Source: Planctomycetota bacterium (GTDB lineage Bacteria; Planctomycetota; UBA8108; SXIK01). Taken from it: 64,000 nucleotides of DNA. Location of the stretch: positions 8,800,001 to 8,864,000 of the forward strand of contig OZ244999.1 in assembly GCA_965223265.1 (NCBI GenBank). Direction: 5' to 3'. Numbering within the stretch: the stretch's first letter is position 1; each line of letters starts with the position of its first letter. Below the pieces are notes generated by a model. It was not told the DNA's origin and did no database searches. It was given only the letters and a program-made list of their open reading frames with translations. Position numbers and translations under genes: made by a program. Positions 18,372 through 38,633 of the stretch are shown piece after piece.

Positions 18372-19525
18372 TTCTGAAAACCGTTTTGCGGGCGCGGCGC
18401 CGAACAGCGCAGCACGGTGTAACCACGTTTCCCACGCCATGTGCGCTCAGCGAAGTGTCGTTCACAGATGGCCTGGGCTTTCTCTGTCGCCTTGGTGACA
18501 CACCAGTAGGCGCCACCGGGTGCCAAGACGTGTGCTGACTCGCGGCAGAAGTGTTCGAAGATACGAAAATCTCCGAAGTACGGCGGATTGGCGAGGACGA
18601 CGTCGACGCTCCTCGGCTTCAGCGAACCGAGATCGTAGGCGAGGAGCGGTAAGACGTTGTCGCACGCACAGCTTTTGGCGTTGACTGCGGCCTGCTCAAC
18701 GGCGCGGACGTTCGAGTCTACGAGGATCGCGTGACCCGCGCTGGCGACACGGGCTGCGGCGATGCCGAGAGCTCCTGGACCGCAGCCAAGCTCTACGACC
18801 CGCGAGTCGGTTTCGATCGCCGCGAAGTCCGCAAGCGTGCGAGCGCCGTCGTCCAACCGGCCGTGGGCGAAGACGCCGGGCCGGGTGACGTAATCGATCG
18901 CATGACCGAAAAGCTGCGCAGCGATCCGACGGGTGAAGTCGCGGCGTCGCAGCTGACGGTCGCGCTGTCGACGCGCCACGTAGACGACGCCGCCCCGAGA
19001 TCGGTCGTGGATCGTCGCGTCGCCAAAAATGTCGACGACGCGCTCGCGCAGCCAACGGTCTGACCGGTTGTCTGTAGCGGTCAGTAGCTTGCCTCGTGGC
19101 CGGAGGGCCTCAAAACACTGCCGCAGTAGCTCTCCGGTCAATCGTGCGTCAGCAGTGTGCGGCGCCGCAAAGACAACCCAGTCGAATGCTCCTCGCGGCA
19201 AATCCGACGCGAGATGCGGCGTGACTGCAGCGATATGATTGATCCGGAGGCTCTCGCAGCCGCGGTGGAACTCGTACGCGTCCATGTCGAACGAGTGGAC
19301 GTTCGCACTTGGAAAAAGGAGTCGGACGGCCATGGCGCCGACGCTTTCCGGACTGAGAACGACGAGAATATCTCCTGCCATGGGTTGATCCAGCGCCGCC
19401 AGCAAAACCCGCTGGGCGCGTTGAAGCCCGCGCGCTGAATGGATCTCGATGCGGCCACCGAGGAGAGTCTCACGCCGCCGTGCTTTCGATGGGTTGCCCA
19501 GTGTGACGACGTGTTTCTCAGTCAC
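18368..19525 (-). CDS. RsmC/RlmG-like class I SAM methyltransferase
   Basis: PGVFAHGRLDDG, ELGCGPG, NPPY. Start approximate. Confidence 0.8.
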   Translation of the reverse strand: MTEKHVVTLGNPSKARRRETLLGGRIEIHSARGLQRAQRVLLAALDQPMAGDILVVLSPESVGAMAVRLLFPSANVHSFDMDAYEFHRGCESLRINHIAAVTPHLASDLPRGAFDWVVFAAPHTADARLTGELLRQCFEALRPRGKLLTATDNRSDRWLRERVVDIFGDATIHDRSRGGVVYVARRQRDRQLRRRDFTRRIAAQLFGHAIDYVTRPGVFAHGRLDDGARTLADFAAIETDSRVVELGCGPGALGIAAARVASAGHAILVDSNVRAVEQAAVNAKSCACDNVLPLLAYDLGSLKPRSVDVVLANPPYFGDFRIFEHFCRESAHVLAPGGAYWCVTKATEKAQAICERHFAERTWRGKRGYTVLRCSAPRPQNGFQN

Positions 19526-19730
19526 GATTCTTCTATGTTGAGGCTGGGGGCCGATGGACGCTGGTTGGGATCCTGCCGCGATGGCGCTCGCACGCCTTGG
19601 TTGTACATGAACCGCTGACGGCAGGATGGTGGCAAGACCCGACAAGCCGTGAACGCCTTAGTGTTGTTCACGACAGTTGGTACATCAACGCACTCGTGAC
19701 CGGAAAGTGAGGCCATGCCTACGAACTCAA

Positions 19731-19761
19731 GGCGCGGCGGGTCTGAGGGGAGGCAGAGGCG
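19731..19761 (+). other. Conserved leader motif preceding microsatellite (copy 1 of 3)
   Basis: GGCGCGGCGGGTCTGAGGGGAGGCAGAGGCG. Near-identical at 20630 and 34692. Confidence 0.8.
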
Positions 19762-20018
19762 GAGACAGAGACAGAGACAGAGACAGAGACAGAGACAGAG
19801 ACAGAGACAGAGACAGAGACAGAGACAGAGACAGAGACAGAGACAGAGACAGAGACAGAGACAGAGACAGAGACAGAGACAGAGACAGAGACAGAGACAG
19901 AGACAGAGACAGAGACAGAGACAGAGACAGAGACAGAGACAGAGACAGAGACAGAGACAGAGACAGAGACAGAGACAGAGACAGAGACAGAGACAGAGAC
20001 AGAGACAGAGACAGAGAC
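19762..20018 (+). repeat. Perfect hexanucleotide microsatellite (GAGACA)x42 plus GAGAC
   Basis: Read directly. Followed by (GCCCAC)x3 at 20024-20041. Confidence 0.97.
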
Positions 20019-20064
20019 GGGCCGCCCACGCCCACGCCCACGCACAGCGGTGCGGCGGCGATCG

Positions 20065-20243
20065 CGCCGACGGCAGAGAAGAACTCTGCTGCTCTGGGCG
20101 ATCATGCGGCGGCGGTTTTGTCGATCTTAACCGAAGCCGAGCCGGCCTCAAGGGTGCCCTCGCTGCGCTCGGCGCTTCGCGCCCTTGACCCCGTCTCTGC
20201 TTCGGTTGGCGGCAGTGAAACGCCGCCGCGTCGGGCGTCGGCG
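20065..20243 (+). other. Conserved multi-stem structured element upstream of four-helix-bundle gene (core 20148-20188)
   Basis: Core TCAAGGG-TGCCCTCGCTGCGCTCGGCGCTTCGCG-CCCTTGA inside nested IRs (AACCGAAGC/GCTTCGGTT, CGCCGACG/CGTCGGCG). Confidence 0.75.
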
Positions 20244-20274
20244 ACAGGTCACTGGGCCGTTACCGGAGGCACAC

Positions 20275-20598
20275 ATGGGCTTTCTTGCTCTGGATCACAC
20301 TTTTGGCATCGTTCGTCAACTGCGTCCCCTGGTCTCGAGCATCCGTCGTCACGACTCGAAGCTGGCCAATCAGCTGCGCGATGCCGGTTCGTCTGTGGCG
20401 CTCACCCTCGGCGAGGGCAATCGGCGTCAGGGGCGTGACCGCGGGCATCTTTGGCGCGTTGCTTCGGGCAGCGCCGAAGAGGTGCGCACGGCGCTTCGCG
20501 TTGCTGAAGCTTGGGGCTACATCGACCAAGCCGAGGCTGCTGCGGTGCTCACGGACATCGATGAGCTGCAGGCGATGCTTTGGAAGTTGACGCGCTGA
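20275..20598 (+). CDS. Four-helix-bundle protein (23S rRNA intervening-sequence protein / Avd-like family), 107 aa
   Basis: QLRDAGSSVALTLGEG and VASGSAEEV match the family pattern Q.RRAA.S...N..EG / A.GS..E. GGAGG RBS at 20265. Confidence 0.85.
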   Translation: MGFLALDHTFGIVRQLRPLVSSIRRHDSKLANQLRDAGSSVALTLGEGNRRQGRDRGHLWRVASGSAEEVRTALRVAEAWGYIDQAEAAAVLTDIDELQAMLWKLTR

Positions 20599-20629
20599 CG
20601 CGGGAGCTTTGGCCCGCCGTGCGCTATTT

Positions 20630-20793
20630 GGCGCGGCGGGTTTGACGGGGAGGCAGGGGCGGATACGGATACAGAGCCAGAGGCAGAAGCAGAGTCAGAA
20701 CCAGAGTCAGATACGGATACAGAGCCAGAGTCAGAATCAGAGTCAGATACGGATACGGAGTCGGAAGCAGACTACCACGCCCACGCTCACGCG
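20630..20793 (+). repeat. Leader motif copy 2 plus 18 degenerate GANNCR hexamers (20662-20769) and CACGCN x3
   Basis: GATACG GATACA GAGCCA GAGGCA GAAGCA GAGTCA GAACCA... with strict 6-nt phase. Confidence 0.9.
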
Positions 20794-20822
20794 CGTCGCT
20801 TCATTGGAAACGGCAAGAGCTT

Positions 20823-20848
20823 GCGCCCGCCGCGGATACGGCGGGCGC
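20823..20848 (-). terminator. GC-rich hairpin 3' of four-helix-bundle gene copy 2
   Basis: GCGCCCGCCG-cggata-CGGCGGGCGC. No clear U-tract. Confidence 0.55.
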
Positions 20849-20861
20849 GGGTGGCTCATGC

Positions 20862-21185
20862 TCAGCGGGTGAGCCCGCGAAGAAGTGCTAGCAGGCGATC
20901 GAGCGTCTTGAGCGGAGTGGTGACGTCTTCGTTCTTGAGAACGCCCCAGGCCAGGGCCAGTTGTAGCGCCGTTTCGACCTCGCGCGCACTGCCGCGCGCG
21001 ACGCGAAAGAGGTGCTGGCGATCTTTCCCGGAGCGCTCAGCGCCTTCCGAGAGGTTGAGCGCGACCGAGGAAGCAGCGCGCCGGATCTGCCGGTGCAGGT
21101 CGGGATCGAGCCGCCGAAGCCGCACCAAAGGAGCCCGCAGGTCGCCGATCAAACCGAGACTGACGTCGAGAGCGATGAAGCGCAT
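20862..21185 (-). CDS. Four-helix-bundle protein (23S IVP / Avd-like), 107 aa, copy 2
   Basis: QIRRAASSVALNLSEG and VARGSAREV. GGAGG RBS. Same length and same LTR C-terminal tripeptide as copy 1. Confidence 0.9.
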   Translation of the reverse strand: MRFIALDVSLGLIGDLRAPLVRLRRLDPDLHRQIRRAASSVALNLSEGAERSGKDRQHLFRVARGSAREVETALQLALAWGVLKNEDVTTPLKTLDRLLALLRGLTR

Positions 21186-21263
21186 GTGAAGCCTCCGAAG
21201 AAAAGGTGAGTCAAGAGCCGCCGCGTCCGATCGGCGGTACCTCACCCCCAATGCGGAGCGGAG

Positions 21264-21316
21264 GGACTGTCAAGAGCGCGAAGCGCCGAGCGCAGCGAGG
21301 GCACTCTTGACAGTCC
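21264..21316 (-). other. Conserved upstream hairpin, copy 2
   Basis: 13-bp perfect stem GGACTGTCAAGAG/CTCTTGACAGTCC around the same 27-nt core as 20155-20181. Confidence 0.85.
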
Positions 21317-21369
21317 TGAGCACGGCGTACCATCGACACAACCGCCGTACGGTAAACCGTGTCACAGCT

Positions 21370-21427
21370 CACACACGGTCACGGTCCACGGTCCACGCCC
21401 ACGCCCACGCAAACGCCCACGCAAACG
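21370..21427 (+). repeat. Degenerate CACGGT/CACGCC/AACGCC short tandem repeats
   Basis: Read directly. Confidence 0.8.
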
Positions 21428-21645
21428 GGAATCGGGAGGCCAGCACGGACCGCCAGCCCCGTCCACACACCGAATCTGCGGGCTTGTTTTGCTTCATGTC
21501 ACGGCGCGAGTCCACCAGGCAGCCTACTCTCTGCCTGCCCTGTTCAGCGCGAGGCACTTCTTCAAGCCTCTGCCTCGAAGTCCATGCCTTCCGTTGCTCT
21601 CGTGGATGCCATGCGATACGATCTCGCTCCATGGGAGATCGCAGT

Positions 21646-22731
21646 ATGACCTCAGCGGCGCAGACATCGGCGACGATGCGTGCCGTGGTTTGTGTGGCGA
21701 ACGGCAAGACGGTTTTCGAGCGTCGAGCCGTTCCAATCCCGGCGCGTGGCGAGATTGTTCTACGCCTTCGCGCCTGCGGTCTTTGCGGCACCGATCTTTT
21801 CAAGCTCGCACATCGGAGCGTGCCGAGCGGTACTGTGCTCGGACACGAGGTCGTCGGTGTCGTCGACAACGTTGGCGAAGGTGTCGACCAATTCGAGCCG
21901 GGCGACCGCGTCGTCGTCCCGCATCACGTCGCTTGCGGGAAGTGTCGGTTGTGCCGGCTCGGTAGCGAGACGATGTGCGCGACGTTTCGTGAGAATTTGA
22001 TGGAACCGGGCGGCTTTAGCGAGCGCGTCCTCATCCGCGAGCGCGCCGTGCGCTTGGCGGCGCGTCGACTGCCTGCGAGTGTCAGCGACGCGGCGGCGGT
22101 GTTTATGGAGCCGGCCGCTTGTGTCCTTCGCGGTCTACGCCAAGCGTCGATCGGCCCGGTCGCTGGCGACGACGACCGGCCGCCGGTCGCGGTCATCGTC
22201 GGAGCTGGAAGCATGGGGCTCCTCCATTTGCTCGTCCTTCGTGCATGGCGGCCTGAGGTCAGAATCGTCGTTGTCGATCCGATCGCAGAGCGATGTGATC
22301 TGGCGCTCGAGCTCGGCGCTCAGGTGGCGGTCACTCCAGGGGAAGACGTCGCCCGTCGCGCGGTCGACGAGCAGAGCGGTGGGCTCGGAGCCGATGCAGC
22401 TTTTGATACTGCGGGAGGCCCAGGCACACTAAATACTAGCCTGTCGCTTCTTCGACCTGGTGGTTCGGCCGTCCTTTTCGCGCATGCGCCAGAGGGTGGT
22501 CCGGCGAACTTCGATCTCAACGAGCTCTTCAAGAACGAACAACGCGTGCTTGGGACCTATTCGGGGGGATTGACCGACCAGGCTGAAGTCTACGAAATGA
22601 TCGCGAGCGGTCGCCTCGACGCATCATGTTTGGTCACGCACTCTCTACCCCTCGAGCGCTTCGACGCGGCCGTCGATCTCGTCAGGCGACACGAGGCTCT
22701 GAAAGTGCTTCTGGTGGCTCAAGAAGGATAG
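21646..22731 (+). CDS. Zinc-dependent alcohol/polyol dehydrogenase (MDR)
   Basis: CGTD, GHE, CGKCRLC..C, GAGSMG. Confidence 0.9.
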   Translation: MTSAAQTSATMRAVVCVANGKTVFERRAVPIPARGEIVLRLRACGLCGTDLFKLAHRSVPSGTVLGHEVVGVVDNVGEGVDQFEPGDRVVVPHHVACGKCRLCRLGSETMCATFRENLMEPGGFSERVLIRERAVRLAARRLPASVSDAAAVFMEPAACVLRGLRQASIGPVAGDDDRPPVAVIVGAGSMGLLHLLVLRAWRPEVRIVVVDPIAERCDLALELGAQVAVTPGEDVARRAVDEQSGGLGADAAFDTAGGPGTLNTSLSLLRPGGSAVLFAHAPEGGPANFDLNELFKNEQRVLGTYSGGLTDQAEVYEMIASGRLDASCLVTHSLPLERFDAAVDLVRRHEALKVLLVAQEG

Positions 22732-34691: not shown

Positions 34692-35130
34692 GGCGCGGCG
34701 GTTTGAGGGGGAGACAGGGGCGAAGACGGATCCAGATCCAGATACGGACCCGACAGTTGCATAAGTTTTCGCAGGAAGGGCTCAGAAACCCTTTCCCTGA
34801 GGTTCGATCGGCAGTTGAGGGACGTCGTGGCGGACCTCACGTTTGGTGAGGGTGACGGTGTGCCGTGTTCCCCCTCGCCCACGCACACCCACACGCAAAC
34901 TCTCACTCAATCGCAATCGCGCACGGGCTGTTAAGGCGCGTCTCTTTTGCAACGTTGGGGACAGAGTCAGAATCAGAGACGGATGGCGGATAGAGATACA
35001 GAAGCAGATGACAGAGTCAGAGACGGATGGCGGATAGAGATACAGAAGCAGATGACAGAGTCAGAGACGGAGACAGACACAGATACAGATACAGATGCAG
35101 AGTCAGAGACGGACTCGGATGACGGAGACA
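34692..35130 (+). repeat. Leader motif copy 3, GANNCR tracts, CAC-type tract and a 44-bp tandem duplication (34973-35060)
   Basis: GGCGCGGCGGTTTGAGGGGGAGACAGGGGCG followed by GATCCA/GATACG. Later GAGTCA/GAGACG/GATACA units. Confidence 0.85.
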
Positions 35131-35166
35131 GGGCCAGACGGTACAGAAGTCGCAGGCGCCGTGAGC

Positions 35167-35194
35167 AGCGCCCGCTACGAAAGCAGCGGGCGCT
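35167..35194 (-). terminator. GC-rich hairpin 3' of four-helix-bundle pseudogene
   Basis: AGCGCCCGCT...AGCGGGCGCT, same stem core as 20823-20848. Confidence 0.55.
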
Positions 35195-35206
35195 TGGGCG
35201 CCTCGC

Positions 35207-35387
35207 TCAGCGCGTGAGGCCGCTGAGAAGAGCTAGGAGTCGATCGAGGGTCTGGAGAGGCACTGAGACGTCTTCGGTCTTGAGATCGCCCCGGGCCACA
35301 GAGAGCTGCAAGGCAGTCTCGACCTCCCGGGCACTGCCGCGGGCAACGCGGTAGAGGTGCAGTCGATCCTCCCCAGCGCGCTCGGCG
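35207..35387 (-). pseudogene. 5'-truncated four-helix-bundle gene (copy 3)
   Basis: C-terminal 59 aa match copy 2 at 46 positions (hand count). Fused directly to half of the upstream hairpin (35388-35400). Confidence 0.88.
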
Positions 35388-35427
35388 AGGGCACCCTTGA
35401 CCACGGGTAGCCCACACTGATGTTGGT

Positions 35428-35877
35428 TTGACGACCGTAACGGTCTTCTATCCCTACCACCCCCTTGCGGGACGCTCTCTGCCGGTCGTTCGGCGGACCT
35501 CGAGAGAACCGCCCTGCTACTTGGTTCAAATCGAGAAGCGCCAGCTCTTGGTGCCGTGCTGGATGACCGAGGAGAGCGCTATGTGGGTGGAGCTGTGTAG
35601 ATCGCCCCACATCGACGTGGAGGAGCTCCTCGTCATTGCGGCGATCGTAGAGTCTCGACTCCAAGAAGCACCATCGTCCATCCTTGACTCAGAACCAACT
35701 CGAACCAAGGAGGAGGACGATGGTGTGGACGCAGCTTACTCTACCGTTCTTGCCGCCGGAAGATCAAAGCGTGCTCGCAGTGCTGAGCGCGAAGGAGCGG
35801 GAGGAAATCGCTCGGGCAGTGGCGATTCTCCTGCAGGCGATCATCGAGAACCACGGTGTGGAGGGCGAGAACGATGA
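35428..35877 (+). CDS. Accessory protein of recombinase element (DUF5372/Y4bD-like)
   Basis: YPYHPLAGRSLPV and VPCWMT motifs typical of small ORFs upstream of this recombinase class. C-terminal third overlaps the next ORF. Confidence 0.6.
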   Translation: MTTVTVFYPYHPLAGRSLPVVRRTSREPPCYLVQIEKRQLLVPCWMTEESAMWVELCRSPHIDVEELLVIAAIVESRLQEAPSSILDSEPTRTKEEDDGVDAAYSTVLAAGRSKRARSAEREGAGGNRSGSGDSPAGDHREPRCGGRER

Positions 35878-35887
35878 GGATCGATAG
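35720..35887 (+). CDS. Small helical accessory protein (55 aa)
   Basis: AAGGAGGAGG RBS. Overlaps the recombinase start. Confidence 0.65.
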   Translation: MVWTQLTLPFLPPEDQSVLAVLSAKEREEIARAVAILLQAIIENHGVEGENDEDR

Positions 35888-37964
35888 CAATCATCCAGGT
35901 GGCGTCACTACCGAGCACCTCAGGCGCGCGGCAGTAGTATACATTCGTCAATCGTCGCCAACACAGGTGAAGAACAACGAAGAGAGCACGCGCCTGCAAC
36001 GCGAACTGAGGCACAAGGCGGTCGATCTTGGCTGGCGCGAGCCGATTCTCATCGAGGACGATCTCGGCGAGTCGGCTTCTGGATTCGTCGATCGCCCCGG
36101 CTTCGAGAAACTGAAGAGCTGGGTCATTGCCGGGGAAGTCGGGATTATCTTCTGTCTCGAGATTTCCCGACTGTCGAGGAATTCGGTGGACTGGGCGCGA
36201 CTGATGGAGCTTTGTCAGCACTTCAATACGCTGATCGCGGACACCGAGCAGGTCTACGATCTGTCGCTCTCTAACGACAGACTGTTGATCGGCATCCGTG
36301 GCTCGATCTCAGAAGCCGAGCTTGCGACGATTCGCTTGCGATTGCGCCTAGGTCAGCAGGCGAAAGCGAAGCGAGGTGAGCTGTGGATTCAGTTACCGAT
36401 CGGCTACGTCTACGACGACACTGAGATTGTCTTCGATCCCGACGAGAGAATCCGTACCGCGATCCGCCGTGTCTTTCAGGACTTCCGTGGCTCCAGTAGT
36501 GCCCGACAGCTCGCATTGCATTACCGAGACGCGGGGATCGAGTTTCCGAGTCGGGGCTTGGGCAACAAGACGGTCAGGTGGGCGGTGCCGTCGGCCAAGT
36601 CGCTACACAACCTCCTGGTCAATCCGACCTATGCTGGAGTCTACGCTTGGGGTCGTTCAAGGACGACAAGCAAGATCGCCGATGGGAGGCTGGTCAAACA
36701 GCGTGAACGTCGGCAAGATCCTGGTGAAGCTCGGGTGATGATCCGTGACCATCACCCAGCCTACATCGATTGGTCAGAGTACGAAGCGAACTTGAAGAAG
36801 CTATCGCAGAATCGACCGCGAAGAGGGCTCGACGGCAACCGAGGAGCCGCGCGGGAAGGCCAGGCTCTCCTGGCGGGGATGTTGCGTTGTGGTCACTGTG
36901 GCGATCAGCTGAAGGTCCGGTACCGATACGAGAAGGCCTTCTATTACTGCGACGGCACACGAAAGGGGAACTCACGCATTTGTCTCTCTGTTGGGGCATG
37001 TCGCGTTGACCCGATCGTCGCGCAGCAGTTGTGTCGAGCGCTTGACTCCTCGGGGATCGAGGCTGCGACCAGGGCGTTCGAGCAGATCGAGAAGAGCCGA
37101 GCCGACGAGTTGAACTACGCGAAGCAGCAGGTCGAGGCTGCGCAGTACGCCGCCAGTCATGCATTCGAACAGTTCGACGCGTGCGATCCGAGGAATCGCC
37201 TTGTTGCGGACAACCTCGAGAAACGTCTCAACGACAAGCTTCAGCGGCTTGCCGAGGCAAAGGAGACACTCCACAAGCAGCAGTCGTCGAGATTGACGTT
37301 GACTGTCGCAGAGCGAAAACGTCTCGAGACTCTCGCACGGAACTTCCAGTTGGTCTGGCGATCGACGATTGATGTCAGGCTGAAGAAGACTCTGCTGCGA
37401 GCAGCGATTCACGAGATCATGATCAAGGAGAGCGGCGAGCTCGTTGGATCCAATCGGCAAAGTCGCCGCCTGGAATTGACGATTCACTGGAAGGGCGGCG
37501 TACACTCTACCTCCGAGCTGTTGCGATTCCCCTCTCCGAAGGCATCAAGGGAAGTTTCGGTGCTCGAGCTGATCAAGCGGCTCAGCGCCGCGGCGCATAG
37601 TGACAGCGAGATTGCCTTAGTGCTTAACAGACGAAGGCTCACGACCACACGGTGGACCAAAGACAAGGTGACCGAATTTCGCAAACACAACGGTATCAAT
37701 TCAGCGCAGTCCTCCGATGATGCGTTGTCGATGAACGGCGCCAGCAAGTACCTAGGAGTTTCCTCGATAGCATTACGTACGCTTGTCGAACGAGGATTGA
37801 TCAGGAAAAACCAAGTCGCCGAGTTCGCCCCCTGGCGCGTCTCTCGCCACGAGCTGGACTCCCCAGGAGTCCGGAGCCTCGTGGCGACGCTCAAGGCGAC
37901 GGGTCGATTCCCGCCTAAGGAGGGCTGCGCGAAGAACCAGATGACGCTCTTCGACGACCTATGA
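35874..37964 (+). CDS. Large serine recombinase (resolvase, recombinase, Zn-ribbon/coiled-coil and C-terminal HTH-like domains)
   Basis: YIRQS catalytic motif, EDDLGESASG, EISRLSRN, NPTYAG, CGHCG...C..C. Confidence 0.95.
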   Translation: MRIDSNHPGGVTTEHLRRAAVVYIRQSSPTQVKNNEESTRLQRELRHKAVDLGWREPILIEDDLGESASGFVDRPGFEKLKSWVIAGEVGIIFCLEISRLSRNSVDWARLMELCQHFNTLIADTEQVYDLSLSNDRLLIGIRGSISEAELATIRLRLRLGQQAKAKRGELWIQLPIGYVYDDTEIVFDPDERIRTAIRRVFQDFRGSSSARQLALHYRDAGIEFPSRGLGNKTVRWAVPSAKSLHNLLVNPTYAGVYAWGRSRTTSKIADGRLVKQRERRQDPGEARVMIRDHHPAYIDWSEYEANLKKLSQNRPRRGLDGNRGAAREGQALLAGMLRCGHCGDQLKVRYRYEKAFYYCDGTRKGNSRICLSVGACRVDPIVAQQLCRALDSSGIEAATRAFEQIEKSRADELNYAKQQVEAAQYAASHAFEQFDACDPRNRLVADNLEKRLNDKLQRLAEAKETLHKQQSSRLTLTVAERKRLETLARNFQLVWRSTIDVRLKKTLLRAAIHEIMIKESGELVGSNRQSRRLELTIHWKGGVHSTSELLRFPSPKASREVSVLELIKRLSAAAHSDSEIALVLNRRRLTTTRWTKDKVTEFRKHNGINSAQSSDDALSMNGASKYLGVSSIALRTLVERGLIRKNQVAEFAPWRVSRHELDSPGVRSLVATLKATGRFPPKEGCAKNQMTLFDDL

Positions 37965-38155
37965 AGGTAAATCGACCGGGTTGTATCAAAGATTCGTCAG
38001 ATTACGTCGGCTTACACCGAAAGGACTTACGACAGCGGAAGGTTGGAGGTGCATTGTGTGCTCGACTTCACACCCGTGAGCACCGCGTACGCTCGACAAT
38101 GACCGCCGCCGTACGGTGACCCGGGTTCCCCCTCCCCCTCCCCCTCTCGCAAGAG

Positions 38156-38185
38156 CGGACGGCACACGGCGACGTGTGCCGTCCG
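38156..38185. other. Perfect 13-bp hairpin with GCGA loop
   Basis: CGGACGGCACACG-GCGA-CGTGTGCCGTCCG, followed by (GACCGY)x6 at 38186-38221. Confidence 0.8.
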
Positions 38186-38215
38186 GACCGTGACCGTGAC
38201 CGCGACCGTGACCGC

Positions 38216-38377
38216 GACCGTGAGTCTCGGCGGCACGTCTTAAGAAATTCACAGCCTCGGCGTGCGCCCGCTACTTTAGGAAACCCCACTCCCACTCCCC
38301 CTCCCACTCGTGACCGTCAGTTTCGGCGGTGCGTTCTAAAAAACTCACAGCCTCGGTATGTGCCCGCTACTTTAGGA

Positions 38378-38380
<3 letters not shown>
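38216..38380 (+). repeat. Two diverged ~69-bp direct repeats (period 96), each followed by hexamer repeats
   Basis: 38216-38284 and 38312-38380, both ending GCCCGCTACTTTAGGAAAC. Confidence 0.85.
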
Positions 38381-38605
<225 letters not shown>

Positions 38606-38633
38606 AACCCGGACTCCCCCCGGCGCCCGAACG

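Follow-up and report, generated by a model that had tools for sequence, protein, structure and literature searches.

We describe a cassette at positions 19731–21430 of the window analysed here, a 64,000-nt stretch (positions 8,800,001–8,864,000) of the one-contig, 9.18-Mb genome (60.8% G+C) of a Planctomycetota bacterium (G000), in which two convergent genes of the four-helix-bundle IVP family are each preceded by a structured leader and are flanked by polar arrays of hexanucleotide repeats. The cassette is multi-copy, stands in unrelated contexts and is patchily distributed among relatives, which fits a mobile or selfish unit. We tentatively read it as a selfish, non-autonomous two-gene cassette that would persist and spread together with its polar hexamer arrays, the leader acting as RNA and the arrays arising by slippage.

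IVP genes and their copies in the genome

The initial annotation, made from the sequence of the window alone, had proposed two convergent genes for 107-residue four-helix-bundle proteins, and both were recovered as members of PF05635 (53.6 bits for gene 1 and 56.9 bits for gene 2; curated cut-off, 33.8) and TIGR02436 (54.2 and 57.2 bits; cut-off, 24). The two share 48.6% identity at the protein level and 55% at the DNA level. In sequence comparison, an alignment of the proteins matched the solved protein XCC0516 (2GSC) over residues 30–106 with an E value of 6.6e-11; going by the title of its publication, 2GSC is said to be an assembly of five four-helix bundles. When the family motif R..S...N..E was located by eye, gene 2 was found to read R-AASSVALNLSE, and gene 1 to carry T for N (ALTLGE) at a position where the other A copies keep the N. 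A passage of PMC3936711 gives the family motif as GxxRxxxSxxxNxxE. Searches of PADLOC and PHROGs with both proteins matched no family.

A genome-wide PF05635 search, which the initial annotation had suggested as a check, returned 38 genes, 18 of subfamily A (gene 1-like) and 20 of subfamily B (gene 2-like), with seven convergent A/B pairs among them and about 20 loci in total; 36 of the 38 retain an intact open reading frame (ORF), in every case exactly 107 codons long. Copies of the same subfamily are on average about 86% identical in DNA, with a dS of about 0.5 and dN/dS values of 0.144 for A (136 pairs) and 0.130 for B (171 pairs), so that the copies are old and the IVP proteins are under purifying selection. 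Between A and B, dS is saturated at 1.36. The outer flanks, 700–1400 bp away, shared at least 150 bp with the flank of another copy in 18 of 76 cases, all of which were accounted for by a recombinase element, the partner gene or an insertion sequence (IS)-like element. Because the outer flanks are otherwise unrelated, the copies represent a dispersed unit of at most 2 kb and not a segmental duplication.

Degraded copies were observed as well. An internally deleted cassette (8664837–8664960) has the leader core joined almost directly to the last codons of the A gene, followed by terminator and array, and a leader without a gene stands at 5573712 of the chromosome (G000:C1). Cassettes thus decay by deletion while the arrays stay.

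Covariation in the structured leader

The hairpin core that had been noticed upstream of each gene, TGCCCTCGCTGCGCTCGGCG (20 nt), is identical in the two copies of the window. In a genome-wide search allowing at most one mismatch, about 36 IVP genes were found to carry it upstream at a constant distance, and it was also present at four to five gene-less remnants. The structured leader as a whole measures about 125 nt. Folded singly, the leader of gene 1 reached −94.5 kcal/mol (z −3.07) and that of gene 2 −88.6 kcal/mol (z −4.49). For the leader alignment, 29 copies of G000 were combined with three from G007, a genome of another family, and nine copies were excluded; of these, five carry a recombinase element in their left arm, one carries a different insert and three are truncated. 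RNAalifold revealed 34 pairs, 13 of them with compensatory changes. In the specified structure, 95.3% of the alignment cells are paired, compared with 35–56% in slid controls, and 85 cells carry double changes, compared with 26.5 ± 3.8 in shuffled alignments (none of 500 shuffles reached the observed value). At three positions, the G:U pairs are those of the sense strand, which points to the leader working as RNA or as single-stranded DNA of the sense strand. Over the apical 27 nt, the A and B leaders do not differ, and the stem with covariation support ends 45 nt before the ATG of gene 1. The leader is far better kept than the protein, and the covariation backs its structure; the earlier statement that the proteins have clearly diverged and the non-coding parts are conserved was thereby confirmed.

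By analogy with the stems of 23S rRNA intervening sequences, the leader would most likely be an RNA whose long stem controls processing or translation of the ORF. It probably also provides the predicted binding site for the IVP protein itself, and the A and B proteins probably act together. No Rfam family reached its gathering score in the whole window, and a search of 19000–22000 at E ≤ 1 yielded nothing relevant, with one chance-level match to ar14 (E 0.15). A scan for promoter and terminator consensus sequences found nothing in the cassettes.

A second repeat, carrying a near-copy of the invariant core (three mismatches to the 20-nt core), was seen away from IVP genes at 403706, 403904, 404102, 5606567, 5652485, 5870097 and 9028017 of G000:C1; three of these repeats stand in tandem, 198 bp apart, upstream of the gene A_404664.

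Hexamer arrays and their link to the IVP genes

Tandem Repeats Finder (TRF) detected 604 arrays of period 6 or 12 at 460 loci, 34.4 kb in total, and these are the predominant short tandem repeats of the genome. Such an array lies within 450 bp upstream or 300 bp downstream of 36 of the 38 IVP genes, compared with 5.7% of random 1071-bp windows (n = 20,000). Array polarity equals gene direction in all 18 A copies and is opposite to it in all 20 B copies; counted in bases, this orientation lock amounts to 3828 vs. 48 for A and 2406 vs. 48 for B. Only 46 of the 460 array loci (34 of 155 when arrays of at least 60 bp are considered) lie within 1 kb of an IVP gene, which implies that the gene is not required in cis for the tracts. 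The initial annotation had regarded the occurrence of tracts apart from the gene as an argument against their belonging together. Tracts do occur apart from it, at 414 loci; nonetheless, the specific link is real, given the orientation lock, the co-occurrence at genome level and the same arrangement in Myxococcota.

It is improbable that no specific link exists and that selfish genes and microsatellites both gather in permissive intergenic repeat islands. Such gathering would be in line with the many arrays that stand without an IVP gene, with the many IVP-rich genomes without arrays, and with the other content of the arrays, namely repetitive extragenic palindromic (REP)-like hairpins (202 of 427 seeds within 250 bp), an inverted-repeat module and IS-like ends. 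It would leave unexplained the orientation lock in 38 of 38 copies, the adjacency of arrays far above that in random windows, the fact that 5 of about 15 listed arrays flank the four IVP pairs of an Anaeromyxobacteraceae genome, and the same arrangement in both Planctomycetota and Myxococcota.

Two forms of array succeed one another in a constant order along one strand: first C-R-G-A-N-N (R-type, e.g. GAGACA), then A-C-K-C-N-N (C-type, e.g. CCCACG and CAAACG). Motif-free phase profiles revealed the variation within arrays to be limited to particular phases, three to four of the six positions being fixed and the others free; the phase classes among 150 arrays included ACGCnn (16), AGnCnG (12), AGAnnC (10) and AnnCnG (9). 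The free positions of the hexamer differ from the adenine positions. The polar strand lies on the leading strand in 198 of 286 arrays (skew minimum at about 7.95 Mb, maximum at about 3.52 Mb), and because array polarity follows the direction of replication, the arrays would arise by replication slippage and not by reverse transcription. The genes themselves were seen to point with the replication fork in 17 of 18 cases for A and against it in 16 of 20 cases for B.

Among the oriented arrays, an excess lies between convergent genes (44 of 84, compared with a baseline of 18%, on a crude ORF-based gene call). This gene call placed 19,419 of the 34,404 array bases in "genes", a value inflated because arrays create open frames, and only the orientations of the flanking genes were used, with caution. 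The arrays as generally coding sequence were rejected, since the median open frame extends only 39 codons upstream and 60 codons downstream. A minority is coding: 21 of 127 R-type arrays have at least 150 open codons upstream in the GAN-NCN frame, compared with 1–8 in the other five frames. Read as codons, GAN-NCN specifies (D/E)(S/T/P/A), and arrays in long ORFs form acidic low-complexity linkers; examples of GANNCN arrays inside long ORFs were seen at 805071, 4488058, 6393309, 3455278 and 8254136 of G000:C1. Given their presence inside long ORFs in one frame, the microsatellites appear to enter coding sequence at places that tolerate them.

Distribution in other genomes

Across a 31-genome set of relatives, the number of CNGANNx6 matches (forward plus reverse) was 1284 in G000, 1732 in G007, 1339 in G014, 504 in G017 and 110 in G005, and at most 68 in the others (68 in G016, with a control value of 62). 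The five genomes with at least 100 matches are the five with A/B-like IVP genes. They come from three families, in which other genera are without both features; no such IVP genes were found in the three same-family genomes, compared with 13–18 in G007. The leader recurs in the G007 copies, where its apical mini-hairpin shows a compensatory change; CAGAGA-type tracts lie upstream of these copies, many of which stand at contig ends. G021 yielded three IVP hits of another type and zero hexamer matches.

For 151 genomes sampled evenly across the phylum, at most 31 first-look candidates per genome were scored, negatives being weak in this set-up, and five genomes were rechecked with PF05635. Seven genomes had at least 100 hexamer matches (G000, G128, G085, G176, G111, G108 and G005), each with at least one PF05635 hit, and the four genomes with an A1-profile hit of E < 1e-15 among the candidates scored all lie within these seven. 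Some member of the PF05635 family was present in at least 67 of the 151 genomes. Those with many IVP genes of more distant kinds were nearly free of hexamers, with at least 31 IVP hits and 7 matches in G042, at least 25 and 0 in G056, at least 16 and 8 in G158, and at least 11 and 0 in G125. The possibility, raised at the outset, that other four-helix-bundle genes lack such flanks is thus borne out for other IVP subfamilies, which stand in genomes nearly free of tracts.

Queried with gene 1 alone, species-representative genomes yielded no relative; an alignment query did retrieve relatives of 40–52% identity, in Planctomycetota, Anaeromyxobacteraceae, Myxococcales, Kofleriaceae and metagenome-assembled genomes of Bdellovibrionota. 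At 8 of 13 relative loci inspected, (CCGANN)n or (CGGANN)n was present in the flanks. In the Anaeromyxobacteraceae genome, eight of nine IVP hits are arranged as four convergent pairs, which combine two subtypes and have (CGGANN)n in their flanks, and 5 of 15 listed array loci adjoin these pairs. The layout there is array, long leader hairpin, gene, shared hairpin, gene, leader and inverted array, the leader hairpin having a ribosome-binding site in its 3' arm. The covariance model of the planctomycete leader gave a weak match in this genome (E 0.0036) and a weaker one to the second leader (E 0.67). Two-gene IVP pairs were also found in G033 and G034 (convergent) and in G031 (divergent).

The initial annotation had noted neither rRNA nor a reverse transcriptase nearby, and this holds: the window contains no Rfam family, the only 23S rRNA gene lies at 2.008 Mb, and the reverse transcriptase domain RVT_1 occurs in G000 only as four identical copies at 1.90, 3.42, 3.52 and 5.91 Mb, megabases from the window at 8.80–8.86 Mb. 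Across the 31 genomes, RVT_1 showed no co-occurrence with the IVP clade, G007 and G017 being without any, and reverse transcriptase was rejected as an enzyme acting in trans on these grounds.

These results bear on the idea, put forward in the initial annotation, that the unit generates repeats with an enzyme supplied in trans, in which case protein, leader RNA and a trans polymerase would make the hexamers and solo tracts would be trans products or scars. We consider this very improbable: no such enzyme was found, and direct support for repeat generation was not obtained. It would account for the hexamer-rich genomes being those with this IVP clade, for the polarity locked to gene orientation and for the phase-specific variation, as if the unit were part templated and part free; moreover, a passage of PMC10053308 describes the family as homologous to Avd, the accessory protein of the reverse transcriptases of diversity-generating retroelements (DGRs). 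Set against this are the distribution and location of RVT_1, the 414 of 460 array loci without a gene within 1 kb, solo leaders numbering just three to four, arrays inside ordinary coding genes, the tracking of replication by array polarity, and an invariant apex that, with the motif read by eye, holds no template complementary to the hexamer.

Weighing the selfish-cassette reading

As a selfish unit, the cassette, which carries no recombinase, would persist and spread together with its flanking arrays; as similar arrays are present at hundreds of loci, these can act as portable homology arms and may serve host recombination or gene conversion. Several observations weigh against this reading. 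Neither an empty site nor a target-site duplication nor an excision product turned up at the cassettes, so that movement is what we infer; the earlier description as a free-standing and probably mobile unit therefore stands as regards free-standing, multi-copy and patchy occurrence and lacks these marks of mobility. A dS of about 0.5 indicates old copies with no recent spread visible, and purifying selection on 36 copies suits a host function equally well as a selfish one. The orientation lock may have been inherited via duplication of cassette plus array and need not reflect ongoing coupling, and the fixation of three to four of six positions is not predicted by plain slippage with neutral decay. 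In the phylum sample, G128 and G085, both fragmented assemblies, yielded one weak PF05635 hit each (29 and 42 bits); moreover, relatives share ancestry and are not independent, and many assemblies are fragmented.

Alternatively, the A and B proteins might be domesticated host factors that bind the arrays, as DNA or RNA, and serve as insulators, termination aids or nucleoid proteins; the genes would then adjoin arrays because they act nearby, and the leader would give autoregulation. This appears rather unlikely, since 38 diverged copies are rarely needed for such a role, close relatives manage without the genes and the arrays, and copies are seen to break and to serve as targets for other mobile DNA. 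Purifying selection on all 36 intact copies would nonetheless suit it, as would the roughly 10:1 excess of arrays over genes and their constrained form, the enrichment of oriented arrays between convergent genes (on the crude gene call), the co-occurrence of arrays and IVP clade at genome level, the conservation of two-gene pairs across phyla, and the nearest relative of known structure, 2GSC, whose publication title speaks of five four-helix bundles in one assembly.

Comparison with known systems

The 23S rRNA intervening sequence (IVS) of Coxiella is described as a selfish element in a passage of PMC4990558. The cassette resembles the 23S IVSs of Leptospira, Coxiella and Xanthomonas in belonging to the same S23p/PF05635 family and in its small ORF tied to a long RNA stem. 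Unlike in these, the single 23S gene of G000 (2007925–2010917; 2993 nt for 2925 model positions) is free of all 38 IVP hits, the ORF follows the stem and is not enclosed by it, and the genes are paired, multi-copy and hexamer-flanked. Avd is a nucleic-acid-associated accessory protein beside structured RNA; in contrast to DGRs, no reverse transcriptase lies near the cassettes and none co-occurs with them. TIGR02436 genes appear in a passage of PMC3936711 as small solitary insertions between unrelated genes, e.g. inside cas operons. They share the family and the location between unrelated genes with the cassettes, but no leader, pairing or hexamer arrays are described in that passage.

Slippage microsatellites, such as the contingency-locus repeats of bacteria, are comparable in their pure tracts of up to 45 units and their replication strand bias, whereas the present arrays differ from ordinary ones in the phase-specific fixed positions, the two types in fixed order, the number of 460 loci and the tie to one gene clade. 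When compared with IS elements and miniature inverted-repeat transposable elements (MITEs), both cassette ends run into arrays, with no unique junction readable, and the outer flanks are unrelated between copies. REP elements, with the REP-associated tyrosine transposase (RAYT), are short structured repeats dispersed in intergenic regions. The cassettes share this dispersed, structured, intergenic character, and the REP system of the genome shares the repeat islands with them; the IVP leader, however, is of different sequence, and REPs were present in the flanks of only 17 of 38 cassettes and at neither gene 1 nor gene 2. No description of IVP cassettes with hexamer arrays was found in the literature (open-access main text).

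That proteins, leader RNA and arrays form one undescribed system in Planctomycetota and Myxococcota, with spread or array growth proceeding without a reverse transcriptase, is in our view unlikely. If it were so, and if the proteins recognised leader or hexamer nucleic acid, this would constitute a new class of protein-plus-microsatellite element and not an IVS variant. To our knowledge, the role of PF05635 proteins outside DGRs is not understood. Handles on it are offered by the two-paralogue arrangement, obligate-looking and conserved across phyla, and by the strict oriented association with GANNCN microsatellites that mark whole genomes. The association may also explain large genomes littered with hexamers, including the tracts that serve as acidic linkers in coding genes, and the leader, having covariation support, could be filed as a new RNA family.

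Layout of the locus in the window

The composite is bounded by a leftward gene starting at 19645 and a rightward dehydrogenase-like ORF starting at about 21647 (Table 1). Neighbouring genes of DUF type and the named relatives retrieved by the alignment query indicate Planctomycetota. The GC hairpin that had been reported after each stop codon was found in both cases. The sequence GGCGCGGCGG(G)TYTGAG, corresponding to the A-type terminator hairpin's right arm, stands before the tracts at 19731, 20630 and 34692, the copies at 19731 and 34692 being gene-less remnants. The initial claim that tracts start after a shared leader is correct for these three sites but not as a general rule. As the start of all tracts, the shared leader was rejected: the loose pattern gave 56 matches, 14 at the 3' ends of A genes and 42 elsewhere, and by eye only three to four of the latter are true solo leaders.

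Table 1. Features of the IVP cassette and of the third locus in the window (window coordinates).
Feature	Position	Strand	Basis or remark
Solo leader GGCGCGGCGGGTCTGAG, right arm of A-type terminator hairpin, no gene upstream	19731–19747	+	134 bp array downstream
R-type hexamer array (GAGACA)x44.8, form C-R-G-A-N-N	19750–20018	+	TRF: 98% matches, score 517; polarity as gene 1
C-type hexamer array (CGCCCA/CCCACG)x3.5, form A-C-K-C-N-N	20023–20043	+	TRF
Structured 5' leader of gene 1: long hairpin, invariant apical segment 20155–20181	20106–20229	+	Covariation, folding
IVP gene 1, subfamily A, 107 aa (stop included)	20275–20598	+	PF05635, TIGR02436
GC hairpin 3' of gene 1 stop, then TTTGAC, then array	20612–20641	+	Sequence
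Degenerate R-type array, then short C-type array (20775–20793), common to both convergent genes	20650–20793	+	TRF tract 20672–20760
GC hairpin 3' of gene 2 stop	20823–20848	-	Sequence
IVP gene 2, subfamily B, 107 aa (stop included)	20862–21185	-	PF05635, TIGR02436
Structured 5' leader of gene 2: main hairpin 21264–21316, apex same as in gene 1 leader	21228–21357	-	Covariation, folding
C-type hexamer arrays (CACGGT, CCACGC, CAAACG) upstream of gene 2	21374–21427	+	TRF, polarity
Second solo leader (A terminator arm)	34692–34707	+	Locus 3
Module of ~215 bp with terminal inverted repeats CCCGACAGTTGCA...TGCAACGTTGGGG, in R-type array	34745–34958	.	Sequence
Degenerate R-type array downstream of broken gene 3	34960–35131	+	TRF
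Broken B-type IVP gene, C-terminal part only	35207–35390	-	Sequence match
Large-serine-recombinase element (ORF 35874–37964) inserted in B-type leader hairpin	35403–38062	+	Domains, copies
Left (outer) arm of gene 3 leader, split off by recombinase element	38063–38122	-	Sequence
C-type hexamer arrays and two REP-like hairpin modules, upstream of gene 3	38127–38608	+	TRF

A 538-nt contig over 20466–21003 was identical in the sequencing runs X1, X2 and X4, and X3 contributed a 501-nt piece; the four runs represent two samples of one study, possibly including the source sample. An assembly artefact in repeat-rich DNA is scarcely credible given this identity of the unique middle in contigs of three runs, the single 9.18-Mb contig of the genome, and the recurrence of the architecture at about 20 loci and in independently assembled genomes from other phyla, even though short-read contigs do break at arrays and at repeated cassette parts and the 269-bp (GAGACA)n tract lies outside the contig cover. 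Read joints skipping 698–1349 bases were considered as empty sites and rejected; their sides measured at most 33 letters with 90% likeness, and they were taken as other repeat loci.

Third copy and other mobile DNA in the arrays

The third, broken copy indicated at 35.2 kb by the initial annotation was confirmed as the C-terminal part of a B-type gene (match 35210–35401, E 7.4e-8). The order at this locus is solo A terminator arm, short array, inverted-repeat module, array, B terminator and broken B gene, and 34692–38608 looks like a decayed A/B locus that lost its A gene. The 2.7-kb element in its leader codes for a large serine recombinase of 696 aa (Resolvase, Recombinase and Zn_ribbon_recom domains) and one small ORF only. 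It is present in six copies of 99.4–100% identity, the others lying near 2581195–2583935, 6779054–6781815, 7186418–7189154, 8597838–8600574 and 8979573–8982309 of G000:C1. All six occupy the same position in the left arm of the B-type leader hairpin, and the hairpin is therefore the attachment site of another mobile element.

The arrays attract other small mobile DNA as well, namely REP-like hairpins, the inverted-repeat module and IS-like elements. The ~215-bp module was found in either orientation at the same array position in five of the seven A/B spacers and is either an invertible segment or a MITE targeting arrays; its terminal inverted repeats are imperfect and about 17 bp long, and it was seen in the spacers at 7.19, 7.45, 8.30, 8.37 and 9.14 Mb and also at 8354387. 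The REP-like module consists of GTAG plus a GGCACAC...GTGTGCC hairpin, and its 14-nt seed gave 427 matches, 202 of which lie within 250 bp of a hexamer array. Some of these modules form 59-nt tandem arrays of hairpin plus three to four hexamers (module e.g. at 38216–38406 of the window). A single Y1_Tnp gene (RAYT-like, with HUH motif; G000:C1:4206488–4207145) carries REP-like hairpins on both sides. Mobilisation by this RAYT via flanking REPs was rejected as a general mechanism, since neither flank holds a REP in 21 of the 38 cassettes, genes 1 and 2 included; in one B subgroup, the copies lie between direct REPs.

Ends of IS-like repeats were seen to abut (GAGGCA)n arrays (G000:C1:488998–496008, 743442 and 5868174), and five tandem IS-like copies with a period of about 1.75 kb stand just upstream of the IVP gene A_496337.

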